Below, piece after piece: positions 3,004 to 40,144 of a DNA stretch of 64,000 nt; position 1 is the first letter of the stretch, and each line of letters begins with the position of its first letter. The notes under the pieces are model-generated. The model was not told the DNA's origin, searched no databases, and worked only from the letters and a program-made list of their open reading frames with translations. The stretch comes from Candidatus Woesearchaeota archaeon (lineage in GTDB: Archaea > Nanobdellota > Nanobdellia > Woesearchaeales > UBA583), in NCBI GenBank assembly GCA_047602745.1, contig JBLKOJ010000003.1:4912-68911 (forward strand). Direction: 5' to 3'. The translations under genes and the position numbers were made by a program.

Positions 3004-3747
3004 ATGATAGAAATAAATTCTTCTCCTAGACCTTCAATTTTAGATTCTAAAAGTAAGAATACCATATCTTTGATTTCAAATTCTGCAATTGATTCAATAC
3101 TCCCTTCAATTACACAAGACACAATAACTACTGTGTATGGTCCTCCTGCTAGTGGGAAAACTACATTAATGCTACAATATGCTCTTGAGGCTATAAAACA
3201 TGGAAAAAAAGTAATCTTTGTAGATACTGAGGGAGGTTTTTCAGTTGAGAGATTGTATCAATTAGGTGCAAAAGAAGACAATTTATCTTCAATAATTCAT
3301 TTCACCCCTAAAAGTTTTGAAGAACAACAACGAACTATTTTACAACTTAATAGACAAATTAAAAATGATAAAAGTATTGGTCTTATAATTATAGATAGTT
3401 TAGTAATGCTCTATAGATTAAAGCTTGGAGATGCTCCTCAAAAAATTAATACAGAACTTGGAGAACAACTTAGAATGCTTACTGAACTTTCAAGAAATTT
3501 TAATATTGCAATACTTGCAACAAATCAAATGTACCAAGATTTTGAAACAAAAGAGACTAAAATGGTTGGAGGAAATGTTATCCATTATTGGTCAAAAACA
3601 ATTGTTGAACTTACCAATGAAGGACTTGATAAAAAAGCAATTTTAAAAAAACATAAATTTATTGAGAGTGGAAAAGAGATTCTCTATTCTATAAAAAATA
3701 AAGGATTAATTGCACACAAATCAAGAGGATTTACCTTTTTTAAGTAG
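3004..3747 (+). CDS. radB: DNA repair and recombination protein RadB (RecA/RadA paralogue)
   Basis: Walker A GPPASGKTTL, Walker B-like IIIDSL, and VIFVDTEGGFSVERL. The short size (247 aa), lack of an N-terminal HhH domain and the C-terminal KAILKKHKF..GKEILYSI are typical of RadB. Confidence 0.8.
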   Translation: MIEINSSPRPSILDSKSKNTISLISNSAIDSILPSITQDTITTVYGPPASGKTTLMLQYALEAIKHGKKVIFVDTEGGFSVERLYQLGAKEDNLSSIIHFTPKSFEEQQRTILQLNRQIKNDKSIGLIIIDSLVMLYRLKLGDAPQKINTELGEQLRMLTELSRNFNIAILATNQMYQDFETKETKMVGGNVIHYWSKTIVELTNEGLDKKAILKKHKFIESGKEILYSIKNKGLIAHKSRGFTFFK

Positions 3748-3896
3748 AACTTACTCATTAGTTTATAAATAATAGAATTTTTCTAATAAGTTCATATTTG
3801 TTTCTAATTATTTTTCTTTTTAAAAGTTATATCTATAAATTAACAAATATTTTTTCCATTTTGTTTTATAATAAAATATCTACTATTAAGTTTTAC

Positions 3897-5060
3897 ATGC
3901 AAAACTTTGTTACTACTAATTTAGGACATGATATTTTGTCTCCTTTTTCTCCATCTGCAAATTCAGATTTAGGTATAAAATCTAATATTAGTAGTATATT
4001 TTTTCCTCAAAGTTATTTTACTAGTTCTGAGCCAACAGTTATAGTTGACCATAGAACTGGAGCTAAAAAAATGCCTCATCAAAATTCATTTTGGCAAAGA
4101 AGTTTTCCCTTGTCAAGATCAACAGACTATTGTATATATGATTCAAATGCACCTGTTGAAAATGAATATATTACCTATTTAAATTCTAGAGGATTAGGTT
4201 CTAAATTAATTAGTTCAGATGAAGCTTCTAAATTTTCTTCATCATATAGACGATTTCAGTTTAAACCTCAAAGTAACCCTATAAATAGAGAGCTTTCAGA
4301 TAAAGAGATTTTTTTAAAATTTTGCGAATCTAGTGGAGTCAATGTTGAAAGTTTTGATTCTTATACATCGGATAATATTTCTAAGAAATCTTTAGAAAAA
4401 ATTTTAGAAAAATTTGGTGACCAAGTAATTTTAAGAGATGTTGAAGGATCAGGAGGAGTTGGAATTTATGTGTTAAGAAAAGGAGATAATGAAAAAGAAG
4501 TATTAGAAGGAATACTTAAAGATTCTAAACGAGGTTCAATTAAATATGTAGCCCAGAAATTTCATGAAGATGTAACATCACCGAGTTGTATTGGTGTTTG
4601 TGATGAACGAGGATTTAGAATTTTAAATAATACGGAGCAAATTATTGATGATAATGCTTATGCAGGAACGTATTTAACTATGCGTTGTGATGATCCTACG
4701 ATTTTGTCTATGACTCAAAAAATTGGGAATTCATTATTTGAAAATGGATATAGAGGAGCATTTGGGGTAGATTATATTAGAACTCCTCAAGGCTTGTTAT
4801 TACCAATTGAGTTAAATGCAAGAGCAACAGCAGCTTTTTATCCTCATGAGGTTTTATGTAGGTTAAGGGAAAATGGAAACAGCTTTGAAGAAATATCAAA
4901 TACTGCTTATGAACCAACTCACAGAGCTTTTCCTTCATTTAAAGAATTTTATAATTCTCCTCAAAGAAAGGAAATTGAATCAAAATATGGTAGAGATTTA
5001 ATATTTTCTCAACCAGGTTTATTAAAAGATGCAATGATATCAGTATTAGTTCCAAAATAA
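3897..5060 (+). CDS. ATP-grasp superfamily ligase (unknown substrate)
   Basis: Glycine-rich loop DVEGSGGVGIYVL and C-terminal signature AFGVDYIRTPQGLLLPIELNARA. I moved the start to ATG 3897, because the first 33 codons of the track ORF are F/I/L-rich translation of promoter-like AT-rich DNA. Confidence 0.55.
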   Translation: MQNFVTTNLGHDILSPFSPSANSDLGIKSNISSIFFPQSYFTSSEPTVIVDHRTGAKKMPHQNSFWQRSFPLSRSTDYCIYDSNAPVENEYITYLNSRGLGSKLISSDEASKFSSSYRRFQFKPQSNPINRELSDKEIFLKFCESSGVNVESFDSYTSDNISKKSLEKILEKFGDQVILRDVEGSGGVGIYVLRKGDNEKEVLEGILKDSKRGSIKYVAQKFHEDVTSPSCIGVCDERGFRILNNTEQIIDDNAYAGTYLTMRCDDPTILSMTQKIGNSLFENGYRGAFGVDYIRTPQGLLLPIELNARATAAFYPHEVLCRLRENGNSFEEISNTAYEPTHRAFPSFKEFYNSPQRKEIESKYGRDLIFSQPGLLKDAMISVLVPK

Positions 5061-5068
5061 CTTGAAAA

Positions 5069-5584
5069 ATGAAACATTTAATAGATAATAATAAAATAAT
5101 GATATTTGGATATGGGTCTTTATTATCAGAACAATCTTTAAAAAAAACTGCTCCAGATTCCAAAATAATATCTAATGGAATTTTAAAAAATTATCTCAGA
5201 ATTTTTAATAAGCCTACTAAAAATGAATTTGTTGCTGCATTAAATTTAGTTGAAAATGAAGGAAATATTGTAAATGGAGTTGTAATTGAACTTGATAGGA
5301 AAGATATTTTTAATTTACTTAAAAGAGAATTTAGATATAATATGAAACTTATAAAAATTCAAACTTCTCAGGGTGATATTGAAGCTTATACGTTTGTATA
5401 TCAACAAGAGGAAGAACGAGAATTTATGTATGAAAGTAAAGAACAAGCTGAATATGTTGAAGTATGTATTCAAGGAGCAAAAGAGAGAGGAATTGATTTT
5501 TATGAAAATTTTATGAAAACAACTTTTGTGGAAAAAAAAGTGAATTTGAATCAATACTATGATAAGAATAATAGGAGTAATTAA
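5069..5584 (+). CDS. Gamma-glutamylcyclotransferase-like (GGCT/AIG2/GGACT fold) protein
   Basis: N-terminal IFGYGSLLS (the YGSL motif of the GGCT fold). A later block, NGVVIELDRKDIFNLLKREFRYN...IEAYTFVY, matches the usual G.vyel...L D..E..Y.R...A..Y pattern and includes the candidate catalytic Glu. It lies 8 nt after the upstream gene and 2 nt before the next. Confidence 0.6.
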   Translation: MKHLIDNNKIMIFGYGSLLSEQSLKKTAPDSKIISNGILKNYLRIFNKPTKNEFVAALNLVENEGNIVNGVVIELDRKDIFNLLKREFRYNMKLIKIQTSQGDIEAYTFVYQQEEEREFMYESKEQAEYVEVCIQGAKERGIDFYENFMKTTFVEKKVNLNQYYDKNNRSN

Positions 5585-5586
5585 AA

Positions 5587-6753
5587 GTGACGCAGTTTAA
5601 TAATTTATTTAAAGAGGAATTTTCAAATCCATATTTATCTGATAATATTAGAAAAAAATATCTCAATTTAACTGGAATTGATATACCGTTATACAAGACT
5701 CCTGCTGTATTTAATTTAGAAGAAATAAAATCTCTAAAGGATGTTTCAATTTTTTGGAATAATGTTTCTAAATATGTGTTTGAAAAGCTTCAATCTAAAA
5801 ACCCTCTCTTGCTTGAGAGATTTCCTGAAATAGCAACTCTTAATGATACATCAAGAACTAATTTTTCAGTTCCTCCTTTAATGAGACTAGATACATTAAT
5901 TTCAAAAAGTGGAACTCCTAAGATTATTGAATGTAATTCACAATTTCCAGGAAATTTAGGAATTAACTCCCTTCAAATTTCAGATTTTTATGATGAATCA
6001 AAATTACATGAAAAAGGTATTGGAAGATTTTTACCTTTTGAAAATACAGTTAATTTTATGGAAAATCAAGCTCGAAATTCAAATACAATTACATTTATTG
6101 AAGAACCTAATGATGAATCTCTTAAAGAGACTAAACTCATAGGAGAAGAGCTACAAAAAAAAGGAATTGAAGTTAGATATAGAAGTAGTGATGAGGATTT
6201 AAGTGATCTTAGAGGTGCTGTAATAAAAAGAGTTGTTAGAAGAAATGATTCTCTAGAAAGATTAGTTCAAGAAGGCAAAGTTGATTTAACAAATCCTTAT
6301 TGGTCGTATGTCGTTGGAAATAAAGGTTTACTTGCACTATTAAGAAATCCAGAATTTTCAAAAGATTTTACAGATGAAATTTATTATGGGGTTGATAATT
6401 TTTTACCTCAAACTTTGTACATTGAAGACTTGAGTACTCAACTTAGAGAACAGATTAGGACTAATAAAGATAAGTATGTAATTAAAGGTAAATCTAGTTT
6501 TGGGGGGAATGGAGTTAATATCGGTGCAGAATTGACTCAGGAAAATTGGGAAACAGCTCTCAATACCTCTTTAAATGATAATATTGTTCAAGAAAGAGTT
6601 GATGCATTGACATATAATGGGATGCCTTTTGATATAGGAATTGTTATGATTGAAGGGAAATTTTCAAATCCTTGGGCAAGAATTTCAACTCGGGGTAGTT
6701 TGAAAACAAATATGCATTTAGGAGGATTTGGAGTTGCTTGTTATAGAAAATAA
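5587..6753 (+). CDS. ATP-grasp superfamily ligase (glutathionylspermidine-synthase / glutathione-synthase-like layout)
   Basis: Motifs seen: IIECNSQFPG, YVIKGKSSFGGNGVNIG (glycine-rich loop), IVQERVD, and C-terminal ARISTRGSLKTNMHLGG. It has a GTG start immediately after the GGCT-like gene. Confidence 0.5.
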   Translation: MTQFNNLFKEEFSNPYLSDNIRKKYLNLTGIDIPLYKTPAVFNLEEIKSLKDVSIFWNNVSKYVFEKLQSKNPLLLERFPEIATLNDTSRTNFSVPPLMRLDTLISKSGTPKIIECNSQFPGNLGINSLQISDFYDESKLHEKGIGRFLPFENTVNFMENQARNSNTITFIEEPNDESLKETKLIGEELQKKGIEVRYRSSDEDLSDLRGAVIKRVVRRNDSLERLVQEGKVDLTNPYWSYVVGNKGLLALLRNPEFSKDFTDEIYYGVDNFLPQTLYIEDLSTQLREQIRTNKDKYVIKGKSSFGGNGVNIGAELTQENWETALNTSLNDNIVQERVDALTYNGMPFDIGIVMIEGKFSNPWARISTRGSLKTNMHLGGFGVACYRK

Positions 6754-6987
6754 TGAGAGTTGTTAAATTCTTATTTATTTTTTAACTAATTATCTTACAT
6801 AAGTAAATAATTTTAAACTTTTTTTCCATCCTTTCTCTACATAACAATTTTCAATATTTTTTTGGATATAGTTATCCTATAAATATTTACACTATAATGA
6901 GAACATGTCCATTCATTAAGATTTTAGAAGTTGTGTAAAAGAAGAAAGTACTTATATTCTAAATAAACTTGCAAAAAATTATATTGT

Positions 6988-7575
6988 TCATTCCCATTTA
7001 TGAGAAATTTTTTCTAAAAAACTCCATTTAAATATTTCTTCTTCTGAAACTATCCATAGCATATTTTCTAATGGTGATAAAATTATATCTTTTGAACCTT
7101 TATTTTCACAATTTATTTCTATTAGTGGAATATTATTATCTTCTATATACCTCCTCCCCTCATCAGAAACATATCCGATTGAAAAAAAATTTTCTCTATC
7201 AAATTTTTTTTCATTTATAAGTTTCATAAAATAACTTTGACTCATTGATGGAGGGATATGAGAAAGAATATAGTTCGTAACTCCATTTGTTTTATATGAT
7301 GACCCAATAATACTACATTTATTTACAAATGGTGCAATTAACAGCTTTCTAGAGCTTTCTTCAACTCCTAATTCTCGAACTTCTGCAAATTCTTCTTCTG
7401 AAATTAGTTCTAAAGTTTTTGAAAAATATTTATCTCTAATTTTTTTTGTCCTAATGTCGTTTGGATTTCCAGTTTCAAAATAAGTACTCAAGTCTATATT
7501 TTGAAAATCAAGATGTGAAAAGTCAATTTCATATGGAGTTTCATTAGATTTCATTAAAAAGTAGTAAAATATCAT
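6988..7575 (-). CDS. Hypothetical protein
   Basis: 195-aa ORF with no recognisable motifs. Its coding-like composition is the only support. Confidence 0.35.
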   Translation of the reverse strand: MIFYYFLMKSNETPYEIDFSHLDFQNIDLSTYFETGNPNDIRTKKIRDKYFSKTLELISEEEFAEVRELGVEESSRKLLIAPFVNKCSIIGSSYKTNGVTNYILSHIPPSMSQSYFMKLINEKKFDRENFFSIGYVSDEGRRYIEDNNIPLIEINCENKGSKDIILSPLENMLWIVSEEEIFKWSFLEKISHKWE

Positions 7576-7920
7576 AATTTATAAAATTATGGTAAAAATG
7601 GCTTCTAAATTTAACTCCTAATTAATTCAATGCGATTCAACTAGATTGAGTACTCAACTCTAAGAAAAAAGTAGAAAACTGCCAATTGTTTATCGTAATA
7701 ATTATTAAAATTTTGAACATTTTTCTCAAATGATAATCTAGATTATTTTCCAAATAACTTTATCTACATAAAATATTTCATCAAATTTATATCTAACAGG
7801 AACTAGAATTTTTCTACTTTTTCATTGAATTTATTTTACTTCTAAATAGAATCTTTAGAAGTTTTTGAAAAAATCTAGCAAATATATTTCTCTATTAAAT
7901 TAGAGTAAAATCAAAAAAAA

Positions 7921-9780
7921 TTATTTTTTATCAGAGTCTTTTTCCTCTGCTTGAGCATCTACTACTTTTTCTCCATCTTTTGTTGTATCATCTTGTCCTT
8001 GACTATCTTGGGAATTAGATGGTTGTTGCTCTTGTGCCATTTTAGCATACATTTCACTAAATACCGCTTGTGCTTGTGTATTAATTTCCTCAATTTTAGT
8101 TTTAATTTTCTCAATATCTCTTGTTTCTTCTTTAACTAATGCGTCTAGTTCATCTACTAAGTCTAATACAGATTTAACTTTTGCTTCATCAATTTTTTCT
8201 TTATTCTCGTCAAGAGTTTTTTTTGTCTGATAAATAAGTTGCTCAGCTTGATTTACTGTTTCAATTTCATCTTTTCTCTTAGCATCCTCTTCTGCGTGTT
8301 TTTCAGCATCTTCTTGCATTTTCTTAATCTCTTCATCACTTAAATTAGTTGACGCTGTAATTGTAATATCAGTCTCTTTTCCAGTTCCTAAATCTTTTGC
8401 TCCAACTTTTACAATACCATTTGCATCAATATCAAATGTCACTTCAATTTGTGGGACTCCACGAGGAGCAGGAGGAATACCTTCTAAATTAAAACTTCCA
8501 AGTACTTTATTATCATTAAACATAGACCTTTCTCCTTGAGCAACTCTAATAGTTACTGCTTGTTGATTATCTTCTGCTGTTGAGTATACTTGTGATTTTT
8601 TTGTAGGAATAGTAGTATTTTTTTCAATCATTTTTGTAAATACACCTCCTAATGTTTCAATTCCTAAACTCAGTGGAGTTACATCTAGTAATAGTACATC
8701 TTTCACTTCTCCTGCGAGCACTCCCCCCTGAATTGCAGCACCTAGTGCAACAGCTTCATCGGGATTTACAGATTTATCAGCATCCTTACCACTTAATTCT
8801 TTAACTAATTCTTGAACTGCAGGAATTCTTGTTGAACCTCCAACTAAGATAATTTTATTAATTTCACTCTCTTTTAATCCTGAATCTTTAATTGCCTGCT
8901 GAGTTGGAACTTTTAATTTTTTCAAGATAGGGTCAATTAATTCGTTAAATTTAGCCCTACTAATTTTCATATCTAAGTGTTTAGGACCACTACTGTCAGC
9001 AGTAATAAATGGTTCACTAATTTGAACTTCTGTTTTTGATGATAATTCAATTTTAGCTTTTTCAGCTGCAAGTTTAATTCTCTGAGCACTTTGCGGATCG
9101 TTTTTCAAATCAATTCCATTCTCTTTTTTAAATTCATCTGCAATATAATTCATCACAATATCATCTACATTATCTCCTCCAAGTTTATTATCTCCTGCTG
9201 TTGATTTAACTTCAAAGACTCCATCATCTAACTCTAAAACTGAAACATCAAAAGTCCCCCCTCCAAAGTCAAACACTAAAATATTATGAGCATCAGCTTT
9301 ATCAAGTCCATATGCAAGAGCAGCTGCTGTTGGTTCATTAATAATTCTTTGAACATCAAGGCCTGCAATTTTTCCAGCATCTTTTGTAGCTTGTCTTTGA
9401 GCATCGCTAAAATATGCAGGAACAGTAATTACTGCTTTTGTAATTTTTTCTCCTAAATAACTCTGGGCATCTGCTTTTAATTTACCTAAAGTCACTGCAG
9501 AAATTTCTTGTGGGGTATATTTTTTCCCGTGAATTTCAACTTTATAATCTTCTCCCATATGAGTTTTAATGGAGAGAACTGTCTCTTTTGGTTTCACAAT
9601 TGCTTGTTTTTTTGCGTGTTCTCCTACAATTCTCTCGCCATCAGCACTAATATGAACTACTGAAGGAGTAGTTCTAGCACCTTCACTATTTGGAATAACT
9701 GTCGCTTTTCCACCTTCAATAATTGAAATACAACTATTAGTTGTACCTAAATCAATTCCGAGTATTTTTTCTTTTGCCAT
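7921..9780 (-). CDS. dnaK: Molecular chaperone DnaK (Hsp70)
   Basis: Hsp70 signatures are present: [22 protein letters not shown] and [12 protein letters not shown], plus a substrate-binding domain and an acidic tail. Confidence 0.95.
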
Positions 9781-10005
9781 TTTATGCTATATTTATTTTC
9801 CTAAATCCTTATTATATATAAAACTTTTAGGATTTGTTAATATTTCTAAGCTAGTTCTATTTATAAATATTTTCTTTTTATCTCAAAAACGCACTTTTAT
9901 CTAAATTTTTAGATTTTTATTGAAATTGCAATCAATTTTTCAGAGGTATGTTCTCATTTAAAAATAGTTAAAAACTAATAAGTATTATAATTAAAAGGTA
10001 ATTCT

Positions 10006-14349: not shown

Positions 14350-15633
14350 ATGTACGAAGTTGCTAAAAAAAATTTCTCATTTTTACTCATAGGTCAATTT
14401 ATTTCTCTTATTGGAGATAGAATTTTAGTTGCTATGTATCTCTCAATTGTTGCAATTCTGGTAAGTTCTCAAAATTCTTGGACTTCTAATTTGCTGATAA
14501 TTTTACAATTTATTCCACTATTTTTCTTAGGGTTTTACTTTGGTTCACTAGCTGATATTTACAATAGAAAATATTTGTTAATAATTTCAGAGAGTATTAG
14601 GATACTCTCAATTATATTACTATTATTTGTTCAAGATAATTTGGTATTAATTTACCTTACCGTTTTAATTTTAGGATTTGGATATGCACTCTTTGAACCC
14701 GCTCGAAAATCAATACTTCCTTTTTTAATTAAAAGAGAAGATTTAGTTTCTTGGAATAAATTATATTCAACTATTGAATTAATTGGTTTATTAGTAGGAT
14801 TGCTTATAGCTTCAGTAATATTATCATTTGTTTCTATTACTACAGCAATTATGATAACTATTTTTACATACGTATGCTCAATATTGTTTTTGAGTTTAAT
14901 TTATTATAATCATACTAAAATCAAAGAAGAATTATCAAAAGAAGAGGAAGAGGAATATCTTCAAAGAAAAATTATATCTTCTAATACTTCTAATTATAAT
15001 ATTTTCAAAAATCAATATGTGAGAATAAAAAAAGGTCTGAGCTATGTTAGTACAAATTCAAATTTAAGAAGTATTTTTATTGTCATATTTATACATTTCT
15101 TAGCATGTTGTATGTTTTTTGCAACGTTAAATGATTTTGTGATTAAAACAACTTCAAATTCAATAGATGTAGGTTCAATTGTGAGTTTTTATTTACTTCT
15201 CATAGCAATAGGAGCAATTACTGCGTATCCTTTGCTGCAATATATAAAACATATTAGAGATGGTGTAATTACGATAATCTCTTTAGGTATTGGGACAATT
15301 CTTCTTTTTATATTTAGTATCATAATTGAATTTAAAATATTTGAATTAGCTCCATTTGTGTTGTGGGGAGTACTTCTCTTAATTGGAGTAATTGTAGGAA
15401 TTCAATATTTACGATTTATGTATTTACTTCAAATTTATTCTAAAAAAGAATTTATGGGAAGAGTGATGTCAGTATTTGAGTTTATTACAAGTTTAACAAT
15501 TATACTTGGAATTGGAATTGGAATGATACTTAGTGAAATATTAGGATATGATATGGCATTTTATATAATTGTATTAGTGTATGGAAGTGGATTTATATAT
15601 TTTTTTATTAAAAGAACATTAGTTACGTGGTAA
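14350..15633 (+). CDS. Major facilitator superfamily transporter
   Basis: About 12 predicted TM helices. The N-terminal FLLIGQFISLIGDRI is typical of the MFS (EntS/MFS_3-like) family, and a charged central loop is present. Confidence 0.7.
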   Translation: MYEVAKKNFSFLLIGQFISLIGDRILVAMYLSIVAILVSSQNSWTSNLLIILQFIPLFFLGFYFGSLADIYNRKYLLIISESIRILSIILLLFVQDNLVLIYLTVLILGFGYALFEPARKSILPFLIKREDLVSWNKLYSTIELIGLLVGLLIASVILSFVSITTAIMITIFTYVCSILFLSLIYYNHTKIKEELSKEEEEEYLQRKIISSNTSNYNIFKNQYVRIKKGLSYVSTNSNLRSIFIVIFIHFLACCMFFATLNDFVIKTTSNSIDVGSIVSFYLLLIAIGAITAYPLLQYIKHIRDGVITIISLGIGTILLFIFSIIIEFKIFELAPFVLWGVLLLIGVIVGIQYLRFMYLLQIYSKKEFMGRVMSVFEFITSLTIILGIGIGMILSEILGYDMAFYIIVLVYGSGFIYFFIKRTLVTW

Positions 15634-15655: not shown

Positions 15656-16405
15656 TTAATTACTTCTACTATTATGAGCTTGTAGTACTTCATCAAGTGT
15701 AGTAATGTCTTCAATACGTTTATCATGAGTTCTAAGAGCAATAACTTTTGGAAATCTTAATGCATATTTACTCTGTGTTGTTTGGGATTCTTGTAAATCT
15801 TGGTAAGACACTTGTATAATTATTTCAGGTTTAAAATATATAACTCCTGTTTTTGAATCTTCTTTTTGAATTAGAGGTGTAAGAAGAGATGTTAAATGTT
15901 GAATTGATAATTCTCCTTCTTCTTTTTCTGTAACTCCTGAACCTACCTTGCCAATTGTTTTTAATTCCCCTAAATTATTTTGAACTGCTACATAAAAACT
16001 TGAAAAGTAACCTCCTCTTTTACCAACACCTCTTTGAGCTGCTATAATTACAACATCAATATCCTCAGATGTAGGCTTCATTTTATACATATATCCTACT
16101 TTTTTTCCTGCTTTGTAAGGTTTATCTAAAATTTTAATCATTATTCCTTCCTGTTTATCATTAACAGCTTGCTTGTAAAATTCTTCAAGTTCTTCTTTTG
16201 AATTTGCAATTGTACATTTTGCAGGAGATATTTGAAATATTTCATGCATTGCTTTAAGTCCAAGTTCATCAAAAATAGTTAATTTATAAGAGCAAGGTAG
16301 TTCAATGACTTTAAGATGTTTATTTTCAAATATAATTTTTGAAGAATTTTCATCATTAGAGTTATTTTGAGTAAATTTAAGTAAATCCATTTTTATTATA
16401 TTCAT
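15656..16405 (-). CDS. ATP-dependent DNA ligase, C-terminal fragment (nucleotidyltransferase motifs IV-V plus OB-fold with motif VI)
   Basis: Motif IV EGIMIK, motif V GYMYKMKP, OB-fold region, and motif VI LRFPKVIALRTHDK. It lacks the motif I lysine and the DNA-binding domain. It begins 26 nt downstream of rnz on the same strand. Confidence 0.75.
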   Translation of the reverse strand: MNIIKMDLLKFTQNNSNDENSSKIIFENKHLKVIELPCSYKLTIFDELGLKAMHEIFQISPAKCTIANSKEELEEFYKQAVNDKQEGIMIKILDKPYKAGKKVGYMYKMKPTSEDIDVVIIAAQRGVGKRGGYFSSFYVAVQNNLGELKTIGKVGSGVTEKEEGELSIQHLTSLLTPLIQKEDSKTGVIYFKPEIIIQVSYQDLQESQTTQSKYALRFPKVIALRTHDKRIEDITTLDEVLQAHNSRSN

Positions 16406-27291: not shown

Positions 27292-30201
<2,910 letters not shown>

Positions 30202-30270
30202 TCATTAAAAATTACATGAGTAATTTTTTCCGCTCTTCGTAAGTAATTAAAATTACTCACTGCATTAAAG

Positions 30271-30344
30271 TGGACCCGTCGGGATTTGAACCCGAGGCCC
30301 CCGCCTTGCAAGGGCGGTGCTCTACCGGACTGAGCTACAGGCCC
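30271..30344 (-). tRNA. tRNA-Ala (anticodon UGC), no encoded CCA, no intron
   Basis: The hand-folded cloverleaf is GGGCCTG/TA/GCTC-AGTCCGGTA-GAGC/A/CCGCC-CTTGCAA-GGCGG/GGGCC/TCGGG-TTCAAAT-CCCGA/CGGGTCC/A. It includes the G3:U70 alanine identity pair. Confidence 0.9.
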
Positions 30345-32464: not shown

Positions 32465-34192
32465 CTACTTAAAAAAATTCTCTAATTCCTCAACTACATT
32501 TTTAGAATACCTTTTTTTATCAATAATAATTGAAGTATTAGTAAATAGTTTCCTAAGTACTCCTTGTCTTTTTTCAAGAGAACTTAAATGTAAAAATTCA
32601 CCATTTAATTCTAAAATATCAAAAATTCTCATGCCAATTATAATGTTAGATTTTAAATTATGAGATTTTGTCATTATCCTCTTTGAAAGTTCTTGAAATT
32701 TAACTTGTTTAAAATTAGATTTTTCAAACCCCACACATTCAGCATCAAATACACAAGAAGTATTTGAAAAATTTGTTTCAATAAAATAAACAATCTCTTT
32801 AAATTGAGAGGTCAAGTCCTCCAAATTTCTTGAAAATAACTTGACATCACCAAAATCATTTTGAATAATAAGTCTCAATCCATCATATTTATAATCACAA
32901 AAAAAAGGAAACTCCACTTTTGAATTAATTTCATCAAATGAATACAGTCTAGGGCCCAACATAACTTTTATGGGCTTTCCAAAAATTATTGGTGGATTAA
33001 ATAAATTAATTATATCTTCCTTTAATTTATCATATGATACTTTATAAGAAACATTATAAGAGTATAAAGAATCAAACAAGTCCTTAAAACCTTTAAATAT
33101 TTCTTTTTGAAATTCTTGAACACTCAACGCATTATTCTGACTCTCAAGATTATCATTTGAAATAATTACAATGTTTATGTAGGGAAAAAAAGTTAGAAGA
33201 TTAGAACTATGATTTTGAGAAATACTAATTTCTGATTGATTAAATCTATATAACTTATTAAAAATACTACCAATTAATTTTTCTCTATCAATTAACTCAA
33301 ATTTATACCCTAGTTTCTCACAAACACTACCTTTTTGATTTTTTACAGATTTTAAAGATTTACAATTTACATTTTTAAAATCTCTACTTATTTTAACATC
33401 ACCACTTCTAATTGCAGTTTCAAAATCCGATTTATTATAATCTAGATAATTGTAAACATGAGAACTGAAAAAATGATTGATTTTTACATATAATCTTTCA
33501 CTTTGAATAACTTTTTTGTATTCTTCTAAAATATCAATATTTATTATAAATCTCTGCAAAGAATCTTCAAAATAATGTATGGAACTTAATTTGGGAAAAA
33601 AAGCAAACACAAAAGCATCATGAATTATCCCCTCATTAGCTCCGATTTTTAACAAATCTGCCAAGTATGCAACTAGGACTTTTCTCTCTTCTAATGAATT
33701 TGTCAATGATAAAAGTTGAAGAATTTTATTTTTTCTATATAAGTTTGAATTTTTTCCCGAAATTTGAGATATTTCAATAAGAATTTGAGAAAAATCTTCA
33801 AGCATCAAAAACGATTTTTCTTGGAAAATTGATCTATTTTTAAAATTCACATCTAAATTTTCAAGAGTCTTATAAATATCCCCTGTGCTATTAAATTCTT
33901 TTTCAATTATCATCCTTGATACCATGTAATAAGAAGACAATGCTTCAAATACTGTTTTTAATGAAATTGAAAACTCTTTTTTTGAAATTTCTCTTGCAAA
34001 ATTTCCAGACATAATATCAATCATTAAAGTCACATCACTAGGGTCAAAAGACATTAAAAAATCACTCAAAATTTGGATTTTTATTAATTTTTTAGAATGT
34101 GCTTTTAAAATTAAACACAATTTAGAGAACTCTTCAAAAGTTACTAGTTCATAATTATAATTGGCATTTGAGATCTTTTTTTTTAAATTCAT
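32465..34192 (-). CDS. ATP-dependent DNA ligase, N-terminal fragment (DNA-binding domain plus adenylation motifs I, III, IIIa), ending before motif IV
   Basis: DBD-like N-terminus (FEEFSKLCLILKAHSKKLIKIQILSDFL). Motif I CDYKYDGLRLII (Lys at about residue 435), LFSRNLEDLT, motif III VFDAECV, motif IIIa RIFDILELNGE. The ORF stops after ...VVEELENFFK, with no motifs IV-VI or OB fold. Confidence 0.7.
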   Translation of the reverse strand: MNLKKKISNANYNYELVTFEEFSKLCLILKAHSKKLIKIQILSDFLMSFDPSDVTLMIDIMSGNFAREISKKEFSISLKTVFEALSSYYMVSRMIIEKEFNSTGDIYKTLENLDVNFKNRSIFQEKSFLMLEDFSQILIEISQISGKNSNLYRKNKILQLLSLTNSLEERKVLVAYLADLLKIGANEGIIHDAFVFAFFPKLSSIHYFEDSLQRFIINIDILEEYKKVIQSERLYVKINHFFSSHVYNYLDYNKSDFETAIRSGDVKISRDFKNVNCKSLKSVKNQKGSVCEKLGYKFELIDREKLIGSIFNKLYRFNQSEISISQNHSSNLLTFFPYINIVIISNDNLESQNNALSVQEFQKEIFKGFKDLFDSLYSYNVSYKVSYDKLKEDIINLFNPPIIFGKPIKVMLGPRLYSFDEINSKVEFPFFCDYKYDGLRLIIQNDFGDVKLFSRNLEDLTSQFKEIVYFIETNFSNTSCVFDAECVGFEKSNFKQVKFQELSKRIMTKSHNLKSNIIIGMRIFDILELNGEFLHLSSLEKRQGVLRKLFTNTSIIIDKKRYSKNVVEELENFFK

Positions 34193-36157: not shown

Positions 36158-36595
36158 ATGAAAAATCAAATTCTCCTAACTCCAGTTGATGAAATAGTAA
36201 CCTATATAAAACAAAACCCTAGTAAAACAATTTCAGAGATTTCGAAAGTTTTTAAGATTAAAGAAGATATAATTGATAAGTGGGTTACCGTATTAGAAGA
36301 ATACAACATATGTAGAGTTGAATTCCATGGACTTGAGGGTAGAATAGATTATTGTGAAGAAATAGGCAAAAAGAAAAACATTAAAGTTGAGCAAATCAAA
36401 GATTCTTTTGTAAAAGCTTGTTATTCTAGAAAAATATCTACTGAAAAGATGAAAGAATTATGGAATCTTTTTTTTGTAGAATATGAAGAAGAAATTAAAA
36501 AAGAATTTGAAAAAGAGTGTATAGAAAAAAAACTCGACAAAAGAAAAATCCCTTTAGCATGGGAAAGATTTAAACAGACTAATAAAACACTATAA
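36158..36595 (+). CDS. Hypothetical protein, possible N-terminal winged-helix; first gene of the pilus operon
   Basis: KTISEISKVFKIKEDIIDKWVTVLEEYNI looks HTH-like. The stop lies 1 nt before the next start. Confidence 0.35.
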   Translation: MKNQILLTPVDEIVTYIKQNPSKTISEISKVFKIKEDIIDKWVTVLEEYNICRVEFHGLEGRIDYCEEIGKKKNIKVEQIKDSFVKACYSRKISTEKMKELWNLFFVEYEEEIKKEFEKECIEKKLDKRKIPLAWERFKQTNKTL

Positions 36596-36596
36596 A

Positions 36597-37799
36597 ATGG
36601 CAATTGATTTTGAAGAATTTTTAAATAAGGCTCTTTCTACAAATACTAAAAAAGATGATATTTTTGACCTGGACTTAGAAGAGGATGAAAAAACTACTAA
36701 AGAATTAGAAACAATTTCAATTCAACCACTTTTAGAACAAATTTCAAAACTTAAACAAAAAGCACTTGAAACTCCTCAAAAGTTTAAAGAAATATATCAA
36801 AAATTTGAAGAATTTGAAAAGAACTATCCTCTTTACTTTATTGATATTCAATCCTCTTTATATGAAAATCAATCATTGTTAAAAAGTAAATACCTTAGTG
36901 AAATTTTAGAAAAAGAAAATAAAAAGCTCGTTGATATTAGAAAATTTTTTGAAACAGAACTAGAACTAATTTCTCAGCATATTGATGAAAAAAAATTTAA
37001 AAATGCTCACGATAGAATTAATAGTATAAATTATGAAATTTTACAAATACCAAAATCTTATACTGATCTTAAAATTGAATTTAATACTAAAATTCAAAAA
37101 ATTATCTCTACATATTACTTTGAATTAGAAAGATCTAAAAAAAAACTAGCATTTCTCTATATTGATGTAATGAAATTAATATTAAACCAAAAAACTTTAA
37201 TTTTCACAACAATTTACAGAGATGAATTAGATGAATTAATTCAAGACATTCATACTTTATTTTTAAAAAAGAGAATAGAATTAGATATGTATTTAAGCCG
37301 ATATATTTCTAAATTTATTCTCTTTACAAATAAACTTATTGAATATAGAAAACAAATTCAAATTAAAACTGAACAAGAATTTAAGAAATATTTTTCATAT
37401 TTAGAACAAGAATTTAAAAAATCAATTCAAAAAAATAAAACTTACCAAGCTCTAATTATTTTAGAAGTAGCACATTTATTACTTAAAAAAGAAACTATCT
37501 ATAACCAAGAGTTAAAAATATCCTACTTTTTAAAATTAATTGAATTAAAAAAAGACATAAATACCCTTAGCTATAATACTAGAAAAGGATTTAGTGAAGA
37601 AGAATTAACTTTGTGTTATGCATATTCAAAATTTAATTTGATTAATTTAATTCAAAATTCAATAATTAGATACAATAAAAATGAAATTAAATCAATTATT
37701 AAGGAAATTTCAAATCTTGAAAATATCTCAATAAAACATAAAAAAATTTTAATTTCAAAACTTGAAGCTAAAATAAATATAAATTTAACTAAAAACTAA
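36597..37799 (+). CDS. Hypothetical all-alpha/coiled-coil protein, pilus-operon accessory
   Basis: 400 aa, K/E/I-rich and helical, with no P-loop. It is translationally coupled on both sides (1-2 nt spacers). Confidence 0.4.
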   Translation: MAIDFEEFLNKALSTNTKKDDIFDLDLEEDEKTTKELETISIQPLLEQISKLKQKALETPQKFKEIYQKFEEFEKNYPLYFIDIQSSLYENQSLLKSKYLSEILEKENKKLVDIRKFFETELELISQHIDEKKFKNAHDRINSINYEILQIPKSYTDLKIEFNTKIQKIISTYYFELERSKKKLAFLYIDVMKLILNQKTLIFTTIYRDELDELIQDIHTLFLKKRIELDMYLSRYISKFILFTNKLIEYRKQIQIKTEQEFKKYFSYLEQEFKKSIQKNKTYQALIILEVAHLLLKKETIYNQELKISYFLKLIELKKDINTLSYNTRKGFSEEELTLCYAYSKFNLINLIQNSIIRYNKNEIKSIIKEISNLENISIKHKKILISKLEAKININLTKN

Positions 37800-37801
37800 A
37801 A

Positions 37802-39307
37802 ATGAAATTACTAAAAAAATATGAGGTTTTTTTTGAAGGTGTTGGAATCCCAATTATGATTTATGAACAACCTAAACAATTTATTCCAACATATGAAGTT
37901 GGAATTTTAGAACTTGGTAAATATACACAATTAATCATTAAGAAAATTAAAGAGGACTTATTAAGAGAAGGAGTATTAGATTCTTTTTCAAGACAAACAA
38001 ATGTTGGATATGAAGAGATAAAACAAGCTTATATGGATAAAATTAAAGAACTATTAAATTATTATTTTCCTAATTTATCTTTTGATGATAAATCTAAAAT
38101 TTTAACAGTAATATTACAGACAAGTTTTGACTTAGGTTATGTTGATATTTTGGTAAGTGATTCTCAAATTGAAGAAGTTACTATTAATGGAGCTAAAAGT
38201 GAAATTATGGTCTATCATAGACAATATGGTTGGTTAAAAACTAATTTGAATTTTAAAAATGATGTTGATATTAGAAATATTGCGACTAGAGTAGCGATGG
38301 AAAATAAAAAAATTTTCTCAAATTTAAATCCTCTTCTAGATGCGCATCTATTAGGGGGACATCGTGTCAATGCTACACTGTCTCCCATCTCAACTGAAGG
38401 TTCAACAATGACTATTAGGCGTTTTTCTGACACACCATGGACAGTATGTGATTTAATTCGAGCTAGGACTTCAACTCCATTGGGCCTTGCATTAATTTGG
38501 CTTGCAATTGAAAATGAATTTTCTTTAATTGTGGTTGGAGGAACAGGGTCAGGTAAAACATCATTTCTAAATGCAATTTCTGGATTTATACCAGCTGATC
38601 AGAGAATTATCTCTGTTGAAGATACAAGAGAAGTCAGACTCCCTGAATATGCACACTGGGTTCCCATGGAATCTAGAGCTGCAAATCAAGAAGGAAAAGG
38701 AGAAGTTTCTATGCTTCATTTAATAGTTAATAGTCTTCGTATGAGACCTGATAGAATTTTAATTGGAGAAATTAGACGTAAAGAAGAAGCTGAAATTTTA
38801 TTTGAAGCTATGAGAACCGGACACAGTGTTTATGGAACTTTTCACGCAAATACTGCTGAAGAAATGGTTTTACGTATGTCTTCATCACCAATAGAAATCC
38901 CTAAAATAACATTAAATTCATTAGGACTCATTGTTGTACAACATAGAGATAGAAAATCAGGTAGGAGAATTACACTTCAGATAGCTGAAATGACACCTGA
39001 GGGGAATAGTAGAGTAATATTTCAACATAATCCTAAAATTGATGATTTAGTACTGAAAAGAAAACCTAAATATTTTATGCACAAACTAGATGAATTTCAT
39101 GGAATTGATGAGGAAGAATTTTTAAGAGAAATTAAACACAGAGCTTGGTTTTTAAACGCTTTAAGTGAGGCAGGGGCTGAAGATATCACACAAATTGGAA
39201 ACTATATTAACCAATATCATAAAAATAAAGATGAAATTTTAAGTTCATTATCTAAACTTATCAAAAAAAAGATGAAACATAAAAAACTTAAACTCAAAGA
39301 AACATAA
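37802..39307 (+). CDS. Type IV pilus/archaellum-family secretion ATPase (FlaI/PilB/TadA-like)
   Basis: Walker A GGTGSGKTSFLNA, Asp box ISVEDTREV, Walker B/His box RPDRILIGEIRRKEEAEILFEAMRTGHSVYGTFHA. Confidence 0.9.
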   Translation: MKLLKKYEVFFEGVGIPIMIYEQPKQFIPTYEVGILELGKYTQLIIKKIKEDLLREGVLDSFSRQTNVGYEEIKQAYMDKIKELLNYYFPNLSFDDKSKILTVILQTSFDLGYVDILVSDSQIEEVTINGAKSEIMVYHRQYGWLKTNLNFKNDVDIRNIATRVAMENKKIFSNLNPLLDAHLLGGHRVNATLSPISTEGSTMTIRRFSDTPWTVCDLIRARTSTPLGLALIWLAIENEFSLIVVGGTGSGKTSFLNAISGFIPADQRIISVEDTREVRLPEYAHWVPMESRAANQEGKGEVSMLHLIVNSLRMRPDRILIGEIRRKEEAEILFEAMRTGHSVYGTFHANTAEEMVLRMSSSPIEIPKITLNSLGLIVVQHRDRKSGRRITLQIAEMTPEGNSRVIFQHNPKIDDLVLKRKPKYFMHKLDEFHGIDEEEFLREIKHRAWFLNALSEAGAEDITQIGNYINQYHKNKDEILSSLSKLIKKKMKHKKLKLKET

Positions 39308-39320
39308 TATAATATAAACT

Positions 39321-40136: not shown

Positions 40137-40144
40137 TAATAAAA

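Follow-up and report, generated by a model that had tools for sequence, protein, structure and literature searches.

Why would a small lake-water archaeon carry a tight, rare and fast-evolving operon in which two different ligases enclose a gamma-glutamylcyclotransferase (GGCT)? The question is raised by three same-strand genes, which we call g1, g2 and g3, in a window of 64,000 nt (the whole stretch of DNA analyzed here). The window has a G+C content of ~27% and is archaeal, since it carries an archaeal LSU rRNA at 27307-30152; among named relatives, a 'Candidatus Nanoarchaeia archaeon' MAG comes closest. The features of the locus are as follows.

3763 to 3896, forward strand: AT-rich upstream region with TATA-like boxes, read from the sequence
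~3867 to 3876, forward strand: TATA-like box, e.g., TTTATAATAA, some 20-30 nt before the g1 ATG, read from the sequence
3897 to 5060, forward strand: g1, a 387-aa classical (non-permuted) ATP-grasp carboxylate-amine ligase, from Pfam, profile matches and invariant residues
5069 to 5584, forward strand: g2 (GGCT-a), a 171-aa gamma-glutamylcyclotransferase-family protein, from Pfam, profile and invariant motif
5111 to 5122, forward strand: YGSL in g2 (residues 15-18), invariant in 9 GGCT-a/b sequences
5327 to 5329, forward strand: candidate catalytic Glu87 of g2, invariant in the same 9 sequences
5573 to 5577, forward strand: AGGAG, Shine-Dalgarno-like, within the end of g2 and 9 nt upstream of the g3 GTG
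5587 to 6753, forward strand: g3, a 388-aa ligase predicted to be a circularly permuted ATP-grasp enzyme of the eukaryotic-GS/GspS/YgiC/Cp1B fold, from AF2 and Foldseek
6771 to 6783, forward strand: T-rich run TTATTTATTTTTT, 18 nt past the g3 stop, read from the sequence
6852 to 6932, forward strand: relic of a second GGCT paralogue (GGCT-b), from tblastn and translation

As a preliminary description of this DNA had it, the genes are separated by 8 nt (g1-g2, 5061-5068) and 2 nt (g2-g3, 5585-5586). Same-strand genes of the window, called roughly from ATG starts only, have a median gap of 83 nt, and gaps of 10 nt or less occur in 4 of 29 pairs; the g2-g3 junction is absent from this baseline because the ATG-only set wrongly starts g3 at 5881. 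Two successive junctions so tight still lie in the tail of the window's gap distribution. The AT-rich region upstream of g1 is a candidate archaeal promoter, from which the operon transcript would start with a short leader or none, and the T-rich run downstream of g3 is a candidate oligo-T terminator of archaeal type. Homologue N-termini align at the GTG start of g3, and the AGGAG motif, by its position, would support both this start and translational coupling. Homologue N-termini also back the ATG of g1 at 3897, where the mechanical ORF begins with a TTG at 3798. Farther along the window, an MFS transporter is encoded at 14350-15633, ~7.6 kb downstream of g3.

The two ligases and the GGCT-fold protein

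g1 exceeds the cut-off of Pfam ATP-grasp_3 (30.6 bits versus 23.2), and in the homologue alignment its R180, G184/G186/G187/G189, Q220, D292 and E305-x-N307-x-R309 are invariant. Compared with solved structures, the g1 family profile matched BesA (8yi6; E 6.4e-7) and PGM1 (3wvq; E 3e-6), the latter alignment taking in an N-domain stretch; at 94 and 54 aligned residues, respectively, the likeness is remote and partial. BesA is named L-propargylglycine--L-glutamate ligase in both its PDB and NCBIfam entries and forms a gamma-glutamyl dipeptide. The best NCBIfam match of g1 is the BesA model, but its score of 24.7 against a cut-off of 750 means that g1 is not a BesA orthologue, and given how remote and partial the similarity to BesA and PGM1 is, a gamma-glutamyl specificity for g1 is a guess.

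For g3, Pfam gave sub-threshold matches only, the top one being GSP_synth (24.0 versus a gathering score of 29.3); despite this, g3 is an ATP-grasp enzyme, as structure prediction and fold search show. The AF2 model, built on an 84-sequence alignment, has a pLDDT of 93.8 and a pTM of 0.92, and a Foldseek search of the PDB returned 3kal (5.7e-15), then 8fbz/2hgs, 9cjn, 2io8 and 7uka/7uk6, with RimK reaching only 3.7e-4. The Mg/phosphate motif, R100-x-D102...E115-x-N117, precedes the ATP Lys/Gly-rich loop (K300, G306-V310) and Q335 in the chain; hhalign places R180 and Q220 of g1 on K300 and Q335. Across the 84 relatives, R100, D102, E115, N117, K246, K300, G313 and Q335 are invariant. Distant relatives of g3 reach the gathering scores of Pfam GSP_synth and CP_ATPgrasp_1/2, and the top PDB sequence match of the g3 profile is YgiC (E 0.03), spanning the R-x-D...E-x-N stretch.

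The preliminary description had spoken of two divergent ATP-grasp amide ligases and had looked to profile and structure searches for their subfamilies. Both are indeed ATP-grasp amide ligases; by sequence, g1 appears to be remotely PGM1/BesA-like, whereas g3, on its predicted structure, is circularly permuted and has the eukaryotic glutathione-synthetase (GS)/GspS/YgiC/Cp1B fold. Enzymes of the latter class typically take an N-blocked substrate, often a gamma-glutamyl one, and activate its C-terminal carboxylate. GS couples gamma-Glu-Cys with Gly, and hGS couples it with beta-Ala; GspS and TryS couple GSH with spermidine, YgiC and YjfC couple a peptide with spermidine, and Cp1B joins epoxysuccinate to an amino acid (PMC12568646, PMC11762307).

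The assignment of the middle gene to the GGCT/AIG2 proteins was borne out: g2 scores 28.3 bits against Pfam GGACT/AIG2 (PF06094; cut-off, 22.8), and F13 G14 Y15 G16 S17 L18 and R86 E87 are invariant across the 9 GGCT-a/b sequences, in keeping with the YGSL motif and catalytic Glu first suggested. The GGCT-a+b profile aligns with human GGCT (2pn7; E 5.4e-4) over residues 7-140, almost the full length, placing YGSL on the YGS motif and Glu87 on the Glu of QEG, which we take to be the catalytic Glu98. Pfam ChaC is matched by 2 of the 9 members, and a ChaC-type GGCT is the best NCBIfam match of g2. GGCT-a and GGCT-b form a tiny clade of their own (the paralogues are about 34-40% identical), and g2 is assignable to none of the GGCT, GGACT, ChaC and BtrG subfamilies. 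The substrates of known GGCT enzymes are small gamma-glutamyl compounds whose alpha-amino group is free.

The module in related genomes

The module was found in about six lineages of lake/freshwater DPANN-like archaea, with radB and dnaK as its flanks in every one, and its erosion differs from lineage to lineage. Both ligases with at least one GGCT are retained in 4 of 6 architectures; the other two are g1 and GGCT-a without g3 (L003) and a lone GGCT-a (L021). L006, one of the four, has g1', g3 and GGCT-b. The neighborhood conservation that the preliminary description proposed to test holds for adjacency, which is kept in related genomes, but the full trio survives in only three of the six architectures. 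Every relative is syntenic across the entire radB-dnaK interval, so the conserved trio is weaker evidence than it might have been, and adjacency at the locus may come partly from common descent rather than from selection for linkage. By called-gene coordinates, L001 has junctions of 13 and 1 nt, L006 one of 1 nt and L003 one of 7 nt; in all lineages they stay at 1-14 nt.

The trio described initially is present, but the ancestral unit probably comprised four genes, two of them GGCT paralogues. The GGCT-b relic downstream of g3 (~26 codons; FFGYSYPINIYTIMRTCPFIKILE versus IFGYGSLLLESSLRRTCPNAQIIE) has no start codon, and its YGSL motif is destroyed; it was found by tblastn with the GGCT-b proteins of L001, L006 and L008 (E 1e-4 to 2e-3; 1.4-kb target), where the intact gene has the same strand and position. 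That L006 has GGCT-b where the window has GGCT-a fits interchangeable paralogues. The two GGCTs look partly redundant, and the genome seems to need two ligases and at least one GGCT.

Between relatives whose RadB and DnaK share 95-96% identity, g1 shares 70% and GGCT-a 60%, and the module proteins change about ten times faster than these flanks. dN/dS is 0.12-0.57 across the module genes (0.57 for GGCT-a of L021 versus L003), which is raised relative to the flanks; as all values are below 1, the genes remain constrained. Catalytic residues are invariant in all three proteins among homologues that are 28-72% identical. TA genes, an orphan ORF and glycosyltransferases also occur at the locus, which is an indel hotspot. 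In L008, g1 has an in-frame stop inside an A18 homopolymer, which may be an assembly error.

No small ORF is kept in the intergenic regions or anywhere in the module among the five loci compared, in agreement with the earlier remark that no precursor-peptide ORF lies nearby, and the six versions of the locus contain no ACP/carrier protein, PLP decarboxylase, acyltransferase, oxygenase or halogenase. By membership, therefore, the module is neither of the butirosin type nor a RiPP system. The closest relatives that g3 has outside its family (E 1e-30 to 1e-13) lie directly downstream of another ATP-grasp ligase, in operons of the order Asp/Glu racemase, RimK-type ATP-grasp, CP-ATP-grasp and a third, weak ATP-grasp, with or without Peptidase_S66. 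As these outgroup operons are multi-ligase, serial ligation is the ancestral context of the g3 clade.

A possible route and its rivals

We tentatively propose that the operon encodes an NRPS-independent, ATP-grasp-based route to a small gamma-glutamyl (pseudo)peptide, from which the gamma-glutamyl group is then removed; within the small clade of lake/freshwater DPANN-like archaea that carries it, the operon may be an accessory one. In this scheme, g1 would phosphorylate a carboxylate, most simply the gamma-carboxylate of glutamate (we infer this donor, as we do the order of steps), and link it with an amine on compound X to give gamma-Glu-X. This intermediate would be N-blocked but have a free C-terminal carboxylate, which g3 would activate and couple with a further amine, Y (an amino acid or polyamine-like amine), giving gamma-Glu-X-Y. 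A GGCT (g2 in the window, with GGCT-b also available in relatives) would cyclize the gamma-glutamyl group to 5-oxoproline, freeing X-Y, and may act on unextended gamma-Glu-X as well. The net effect would be to protect, couple and deprotect, which amounts to synthesis with turnover built in. The add-and-remove gamma-glutamyl idea of the preliminary description is still the most coherent of the proposed mechanisms. We favor it because the strong fold neighbors of g3 all use an N-acylated or gamma-glutamyl substrate, to whose carboxylate they join an amine, the relatives of g1 include BesA, and g2 has the GGCT motif with an aligned Glu; the kept catalytic residues, tight spacing with a Shine-Dalgarno-like motif, four fitting architectures, multi-ligase outgroup context and dN/dS below 1 also argue for it. 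Against it, L003 would run a futile cycle, L021 has GGCT-a alone, and fast change in an indel hotspot also resembles decaying genes.

An unlikely alternative is that gamma-Glu-X-Y is itself functional, its pool held at steady state by built-in turnover and its size set by the GGCT as a ChaC-like degrader; it might conceivably, though we doubt it, be a low-molecular-weight thiol, a metal ligand or a polyamine conjugate, with the GspS amidase domain in an analogous role. The g3 fold agrees with that of GS, hGS, GspS and TryS, the last two being bifunctional synthetase/amidases that pair a synthetase with a bond-undoing enzyme; g3 and g1 have weak matches to glutathione-synthase models, and the ChaC matches of the GGCTs point the same way. 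A review found no GshB or GshF reported in archaea, a gap that a non-orthologous route would fill (PMC7278568). A central redox buffer, however, is expected to be conserved, whereas g3 or both ligases are missing from near relatives whose RadB is 95% identical, and the module proteins evolve fast; moreover, NCBIfam glutathione-synthase scores are far under cut-off (19.7 versus 272), and a GshA-type ligase is absent. Organisms of this kind are expected to depend on scavenging, and the GGCT might instead free amino acids or amines from gamma-glutamyl compounds taken from a host or the environment, the ligases re-using the pieces independently. We think this distinctly improbable; on such a reading, the genes would be joined by a common pool of substrates, not by a pathway. 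The GGCT may have a value of its own, as the lone GGCT-a of L021 and the g3-less L003 suggest, and the MFS transporter downstream would suit scavenging; yet the operon has no dedicated transporter, its 8- and 2-nt junctions and repeated ligase-GGCT pairing argue for one pathway, and salvage alone hardly explains a duplicated GGCT beside each ligase.

Two further readings start from the relatives of g1. PGM1, among its closest solved ones, attaches an acid to ribosomal peptides, and YgiC and YjfC accept peptides; together with weak RimK and YheCD matches, this could suggest ligases (RimK-, TTL- or PGM1-like) that add amino acids to a protein or ribosomal peptide, with the GGCT trimming gamma-linked glutamates. 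We hold this to be very unlikely, given the lack of a conserved small ORF in the five loci and of any conserved candidate target encoded there except the housekeeping radB and dnaK, the action of known GGCT enzymes on small compounds, and a RimK match to g3 that is marginal (3.7e-4 versus 1e-14). In butirosin biosynthesis, the ATP-grasp enzyme BtrJ adds a gamma-glutamyl group and the GGCT-like BtrG removes it, and the ATP-grasp/GGCT-fold pair recalls this precedent; BesA is the top solved relative of g1, and secondary metabolism would fit fast evolution and a patchy distribution. Even so, there is little probability that the gamma-glutamyl group serves strictly as in butirosin or Bes pathways, as a transient protecting group during tailoring by other enzymes. 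The BtrJ/BtrG precedent invoked in the preliminary description carries over in its logic, but the tailoring enzymes are missing from all six locus versions, the BesA equivalog score is far below cut-off, and the sole possible "tailoring" step is g3, which returns us to the protect-couple-deprotect route. Finally, the genes may be mere neighbors inherited in a variable islet and now being lost. Six architectures among close relatives, the GGCT-b relic, the L008 stop, the TA-gene and orphan insertions and a raised dN/dS are consistent with such decay, to which we nevertheless give slight credence: the catalytic residues are all invariant, dN/dS is well under 1, junctions have stayed short in all lineages, and the L008 stop lies in a homopolymer.

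Comparison with known systems

Eukaryotic-type GS and hGS (2HGS, 8FBZ, 3KAL) are the best structural matches of g3 (E 5.7e-15 to 2.6e-14; TMq about 0.65-0.67), with the same circularly permuted ATP-grasp topology and R-x-D...E-x-N before the Gly-rich loop, and they place an amine on the C-terminal carboxylate of a gamma-glutamyl dipeptide. Identity, however, is 12-15%, and g3 is ~80 residues shorter, has no Pfam or NCBIfam match to eukaryotic GS families, matches bacterial GshB models far under cut-off and has no GshA-type partner at the locus. The closest family by sequence is that of the GspS synthetase domain, YgiC/YjfC and Mfla_0391 (2IO8, 7UKA, 7UK6, 3N6X; E about 1e-13; the highest TMt, 0.69, being that of YgiC). 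g3 resembles YgiC in being a synthetase that stands alone; unlike GspS, it carries no CHAP amidase domain, and the candidate "undoing" enzyme here is a GGCT-fold protein encoded separately. Cp1B of the E-64 pathway (9CJN), the third-best fold match (1.5e-14) and a weak profile match too, is a stand-alone GS-fold ligase in NRPS-independent pseudopeptide assembly (PMC12568646). It is fungal, though, and clustered with an oxygenase, a decarboxylase and an ANL-family amide synthetase, all absent from the archaeal locus.

g1 shares with BesA (8YI6) and the pheganomycin peptide ligase PGM1 (3WVQ) the classical ATP-grasp and the C-terminal D...E-x-N-x-R motif, but it is 60-90 residues shorter, and the Bes or pheganomycin partner genes and precursor peptide are absent from its locus. 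Among GGCT-fold enzymes (human GGCT 2PN7, GGACT/AIG2, ChaC, BtrG), g2 passes the PF06094 gathering score, whereas its two-paralogue clade lies outside the named subfamilies. With butirosin, compared by class, the operon would share enzyme classes and a proposed chemical logic; BtrI (ACP), BtrK (decarboxylase), BtrH (acyltransferase) and the monooxygenase are absent here, and a GS-type ligase is present instead. The outgroup ATP-grasp operon differs in having a racemase and an LD-carboxypeptidase-type peptidase in place of GGCTs, and in a first ligase that is RimK-type where g1 is PGM1/BesA-like, but it is alike to the archaeal trio in serial ligation.

Three adjacent genes and their enzyme classes

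The operon consists of three genes, called here g1, g2 and g3, followed by the relic of a second paralogue of the middle gene (GGCT-b, the middle gene itself being GGCT-a):

3897-5060, + strand: g1; ATG start backed by homologue N-termini (the mechanical ORF runs from an in-frame TTG at 3798)
5069-5584, + strand: g2 (GGCT-a); ORF as first placed
9 nt upstream of the g3 GTG, + strand: AGGAG, inside the end of g2
5587-6753, + strand: g3; GTG start, at which homologue N-termini align
6852-6932, + strand: GGCT-b relic; 26 codons, no start codon, YGSL changed to YSYP

All three ORFs lie where the preliminary description had placed them, on the same strand and with junctions of 8 nt (g1-g2) and 2 nt (g2-g3). 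The baseline for this spacing was a crude, ATG-only gene set of the window, in which g3 is mis-started, so that the g2-g3 junction was excluded; the median same-strand gap in this set is 83 nt, and 4 of 29 pairs are separated by 10 nt or less. Two tight junctions in succession fall in the tail of the gap distribution, though they are not unique. An equally tight five-gene operon (36158-41191, + strand; gaps of 1, 2, 13 and 8 nt) encodes, among other proteins, a T2SSE-type ATPase and a pair of T2SSF-type membrane proteins, and probably specifies a system for assembling a type IV pilus or an archaellum-like structure.

Judged from its motifs and profile matches, g1 is predicted to be a classical ATP-grasp ligase. 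It passes the Pfam ATP-grasp_3 model (30.6 bits, cut-off 23.2), and its family profile matches BesA (8yi6, E 6.4e-7), PGM1 (3wvq, E 3e-6) and also biotin carboxylases. By profile, the closest solved relatives would be BesA and PGM1, to which the PDB alignments extend over just 54-94 residues, that with PGM1 taking in a short stretch of the N-domain. The ATP-grasp motifs (a basic residue with a Gly-rich loop, Q220 and the Mg-binding D...E-x-N) occur in the classical order, and R180, G184-G189, Q220, D292 and E305-x-N307-x-R309 are invariant in four homologues, down to 28% identity; R180 stands in place of the usual Lys and aligns with K300 of g3. Orthology with BesA or PGM1 was rejected, as there is no full-length equivalog-level match: the NCBIfam equivalogs score far under their cut-offs (BesA, 24.7 bits versus 750; LdmS, 18.4 versus 475), and therefore no specificity can be transferred.

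The preliminary description had proposed two divergent ATP-grasp ligases. Both proteins do belong to the ATP-grasp enzymes, but they are not alike, since g3 is, by its modeled fold, of the circularly permuted GS/GspS class, with a different topology. Its Pfam matches (GSP_synth, GSH-S_ATP and CP_ATPgrasp_2) are all subthreshold. GSP_synth (PF03738) scores 24.0 bits against a gathering threshold of 29.3, which the distant relatives P0015, P0020, P0023 and P0033 pass; accordingly, g3 ranks as a divergent offshoot rather than among the listed members. Among 1.84 billion representatives searched, g3 has three close relatives only and then, across a gap, 960 distant ones. Half of the 10 distant relatives sampled reach the gathering score for GSP_synth or CP_ATPgrasp_1/2, with three weaker and two giving no match.

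A single-sequence search of the PDB with g3 returned noise only, and an AlphaFold2 model built from the 4-sequence family alignment was unusable (pLDDT 49.7); later analysis used the model from an 84-sequence alignment (pLDDT 93.8, pTM 0.92). The top 48 Foldseek matches of this model in the PDB (E 6e-15 to 5e-8) comprise eukaryotic-type GS, hGS, Cp1B, GspS, YgiC/YjfC, TryS, Mfla_0391 and one putative gamma-glutamylcysteine synthetase (3k1t); the first classical ATP-grasp enzyme, RimK, appears only at 3.7e-4. In the 84 sequences, R100, D102, E115, N117, K246, K300, G313 and Q335 are invariant, and the Mg-site motif (R100-x-D102...E115-x-N117) lies N-terminal to K300, G306-V310 and Q335, all likewise invariant. 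This motif precedes the Lys/Gly-rich loop by ca. 190 residues in g3 and follows the loop by ca. 115 residues in g1, an order that confirms the circular permutation. With hhalign superposing R180...Q220 of g1 on K300...Q335 of g3, the two proteins are mechanistic cousins of different topology. Subfamily placement, which the preliminary description had left to profile and structure searches, was reached for g3 at the level of the permuted class; for g1 it stopped short of orthology with either solved relative. By analogy with the activities of Cp1B, hGS and YgiC/YjfC (PMC12568646, PMC11762307), a g3-type enzyme would take an N-blocked compound as its substrate, typically a gamma-glutamyl one, and activate its carboxylate.

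The assignment of the middle protein to the GGCT family has held up. g2 passes PF06094 (GGACT/AIG2; 28.3 bits, gathering score 22.8), as a match to which five of the nine GGCT-a and GGCT-b members are found at E ≤ 0.1, and a profile of all nine aligns with residues 7-140 of human GGCT (E 5.4e-4). Y15, G16, S17, L18 and E87 are invariant in the nine sequences; YGSL aligns on the YGS motif of the human enzyme and Glu87 on the Glu of its QEG motif, which we take to be the catalytic Glu98. g2 is thereby a predicted GGCT-family protein, a placement that allows no subfamily assignment. GGCT-b, ca. 34-40% identical to GGCT-a and sharing the invariant motif, is intact in the relatives L001, L006 and L008; the window relic begins 99 nt past g3.

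Lineage, relatives and erosion of the module

The window contains an archaeal LSU rRNA gene (27307-30152, - strand), which marks it as archaeal, and a tRNA-Ala gene (30270-30344, - strand) upstream of it. Neither an SSU nor a 5S rRNA gene was detected in the 64 kb; the rRNA genes seem to be unlinked. G+C content is ca. 27%, ca. 83% of the sequence lies within ORFs of at least 100 amino acids, and genes for information processing, repair, pili and chaperones make up most of the annotated parts. Among other features is a long RelA/SpoT homologue of 648 amino acids (44827-46773, + strand; HD_4, RelA_SpoT and TGS domains); enzymes of this long RSH type are not commonly known from archaea. An ATP-dependent DNA ligase is seemingly split into genes ca. 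16 kb apart (32465-34192 and 15656-16405, both - strand), of which one comprises the N-terminal domain and the bulk of the adenylation domain, and the other the end of the latter together with the C-terminal domain; the short C-terminal gene also occurs in L001. A 199-amino-acid protein without a family match (1555-2154, - strand) has an extremely high content of Asn, Ser and Gln, and in relatives an ORF of ca. 205-208 amino acids is called at a similar place, between pheT and a metallophosphoesterase or radB gene.

Among named relatives, a 'Candidatus Nanoarchaeia archaeon' MAG comes closest, and the sequencing runs in which the locus occurs are lake-water and freshwater DNA metagenomes only, with no RNA-seq run among them. 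L001 and L012 are identical over the 4 kb compared and are deposited as 'Candidatus Nanoarchaeia archaeon' and 'uncultured Methanosarcinales archaeon', respectively; one of these labels is probably wrong. Word-index searches found only 3-4 homologue clusters per protein. A scan of genome contigs gave one locus, its DNA identical to that of L001; scans of metagenome contigs with the g1-family and g3-family queries found nothing. Viral contigs held no copy of g1 or g3, and the g3 model had no Foldseek match in BFVD at E ≤ 1e-3. A giant-virus-like contig with a 27%-identical GGCT-like ORF was dismissed as unrelated, its ORF having no ATP-grasp neighbors.

All relatives share the syntenic frame pheT ... 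radB - [module] - dnaK(-) ... rsmB, within which six architectures occur:

Module architectures between radB and dnaK
Window, L013-15: g1 - GGCT-a - g3 - GGCT-b relic - orphan orf195(-)
L001 (= L012, identical DNA): g1 - GGCT-a - g3 - GGCT-b
L008: arrangement of L001; g1 with an in-frame stop inside an A18 run
L006/L007: divergent g1 (g1') - g3 - GGCT-b
L003-5: GT1 - GDE_C - g1 - GGCT-a - MazE - ParE
L021: GT1 - GFO/IDH/MocA(-) - GGCT-a alone

Recurrence of the trio as a neighborhood in related genomes was among the checks that the preliminary description had proposed. Both ligases and at least one GGCT are still kept in four of the six architectures, but L003-5 lack g3 and L021 lacks both ligases. 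GGCT-b being intact in relatives and present as a relic in the window, the ancestral unit was therefore probably one of four genes, which has been eroding differently in each lineage. A relic of g3 was looked for in L003, and none was found.

The gap between radB and dnaK is an indel hotspot. In L003, a MazE/ParE toxin-antitoxin pair (8594-9108) stands in place of g3 and GGCT-b, and L001 retains a ParE relic of 18 residues (9786-9869) in the space from GGCT-b to dnaK. In L021, GGCT-a (3792-4271) occurs beside a GT1 glycosyltransferase and a GFO/IDH/MocA oxidoreductase. The window has at the place of GGCT-b an ORF of 195 amino acids (orf195; 6988-7575, - strand) with no Pfam or PADLOC match, seen only in the same-organism contigs L013 and L014. 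The in-frame TAA in the A18 homopolymer of L008 g1 (ca. 2395-2440) may have arisen in assembly; otherwise it would be a real site of inactivation or of slippage.

When positions 3004-9780 of the window are compared with L003, RadB and DnaK share 95-96% protein identity (dN 0.02, dS 0.26-0.39), against 70% for g1 and 60% for GGCT-a (dN 0.23-0.30, dS 0.65-0.83, dN/dS 0.28-0.47); L001 versus L008 gives a dN/dS of 0.12-0.28, all of these being Nei-Gojobori estimates, which are rough for so AT-rich a genome. On these estimates the module appears constrained, but relaxed or diversifying. The divergence pattern points to selection that is relaxed or diversifying, or else to an exchange of alleles, and the module alleles may have a history other than that of the backbone.

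The nearest outgroup relatives of g3 (P0012, P0015, P0017 and P0033) all lie in another conserved operon:

Outgroup operon
L009, 3621-7674
L017, 3333-8031
L018, 108-3269
L020, 3448-7189

Where the upstream side is covered (L009, L017 and L020), the order is an Asp/Glu racemase, a RimK-type ATP-grasp, a permuted ATP-grasp and an ORF of 307-375 amino acids. In L017, L018 and L020 this last ORF looks like a third, weak ATP-grasp, and in L009 it has no family match; L017 also carries a Peptidase_S66. With such neighbors, serial ligation is thus the ancestral context of the ligase clade. The outgroup operon looks like an uncharacterized multiligase peptide pathway, which probably uses a D-amino acid.

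A possible protecting-group chemistry

In g1, g2 and g3, the enzyme class is established and the active site is intact. A scheme of protection, coupling and deprotection accounts for all the parts most economically; we hold it to be possible, somewhat short of an even chance. g1 would make gamma-Glu-X, the GS-type g3 would add an amine Y to the free carboxylate of X, and the GGCT would cyclize the gamma-glutamyl group off as 5-oxoproline, freeing X-Y or clearing unextended gamma-Glu-X. Of this, we infer the glutamate donor, the order of the steps, the action of the GGCT on the ligase products and the purpose.

Alternatively, gamma-Glu-X-Y may itself be the functional end product, with the GGCT as a ChaC-like turnover enzyme. 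Such an arrangement would mirror the synthetase/amidase pairing of GspS, but near relatives lack g3 or both ligases, and we regard it as unlikely. We gave less weight to an essential low-molecular-weight thiol pathway, as one ligase or both are missing from close relatives. Protein or peptide tailing has a slim chance of being correct, and it is just as improbable that the operon salvages scavenged gamma-glutamyl compounds. We would give equally little credence to a strict butirosin- or Bes-type pathway, since no ACP, pyridoxal phosphate (PLP) decarboxylase or acyltransferase is present at the locus in any of the six architectures, where the neighbors are RadB, metallophosphoesterase, DnaK, GT1, GDE_C, GFO/IDH/MocA, MazE/ParE and the orphan ORF. 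That the genes lack a functional linkage, or are decaying, is similarly improbable.

The module diverges rapidly and erodes differently from lineage to lineage, which suggests that its role is ecological rather than one of housekeeping. One speculative and rather doubtful possibility is that, in one lake-water DPANN clade, the operon makes a small, novel gamma-glutamyl pseudopeptide or aminoacyl-amine by a three-enzyme protecting-group strategy, its fast evolution, patchiness and indel hotspot reflecting a role toward host or competitor (as signal, antimetabolite or surface modifier). If this speculative reading is correct, the operon would join a very small number of "secondary metabolite" pathways that are dedicated as such in episymbiotic archaea with reduced genomes. 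DPANN-type archaea are regarded as nearly devoid of biosynthetic capacity, so that a dedicated two-ATP operon for a small amide-linked compound stands out. Should the product be a gamma-glutamyl peptide or a peptide-amine conjugate, the operon would form a nonorthologous GS-fold route in archaea; it would likewise offer a minimal case from nature of amide synthesis by enzymatic protection, coupling and deprotection, of relevance to biocatalysis (compare Cp1B). The practical weight is limited, as only a handful of uncultured lineages have the system.

Comparison with known systems

An ATP-grasp/GGCT/permuted ATP-grasp operon in archaea is not described in the searchable literature, and an earlier computational mention outside it is possible; a preprint reports a GGCT/AIG2 gene and two nonadjacent ATP-grasp genes for a nanohaloarchaeal virus. 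None of g1, g2, g3 and orf195 has a PADLOC match, and a reading as a defense system is therefore unsupported. The preliminary description saw no precursor-peptide ORF nearby, and an all-against-all comparison of small ORFs (12-90 amino acids) from five loci bears this out: no conserved precursor-peptide ORF was found, the conserved small ORFs lying inside large genes, save for the ParE relic of L001. As far as a neighboring precursor is concerned, this excludes RiPP-type systems.

With respect to glutathione biosynthesis, g1 and g3 score 17-20 bits on the NCBIfam glutathione-synthase models, whose cut-offs are 272-408; g3 was accordingly rejected as a GshB orthologue. No GCS-family protein (GshA) is present at the locus, and a review of archaeal thiols gives no GshB or GshF in archaea (PMC7278568). 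Bifunctional GspS and trypanothione synthetase-amidase carry an N-terminal CHAP amidase domain, which g3 (388 amino acids) lacks; the Foldseek alignments of g3 with GspS cover part of chains of ca. 600 residues (TMt ca. 0.44-0.46), which is taken to be the synthetase part. Butirosin biosynthesis (BtrI/J/K/H/G), named as the precedent in the preliminary description, holds as a parallel for two enzyme classes only, ATP-grasp and GGCT, and not for the carrier-protein, decarboxylase and acyltransferase components. Beside glutathione turnover and butirosin, the operon would be a third context in which ATP-grasp and GGCT enzymes are paired. It is not a categorically new system, but a rare, clade-restricted and fast-evolving two-ligase/GGCT operon, probably of four genes ancestrally and centered on a GS-fold ligase.
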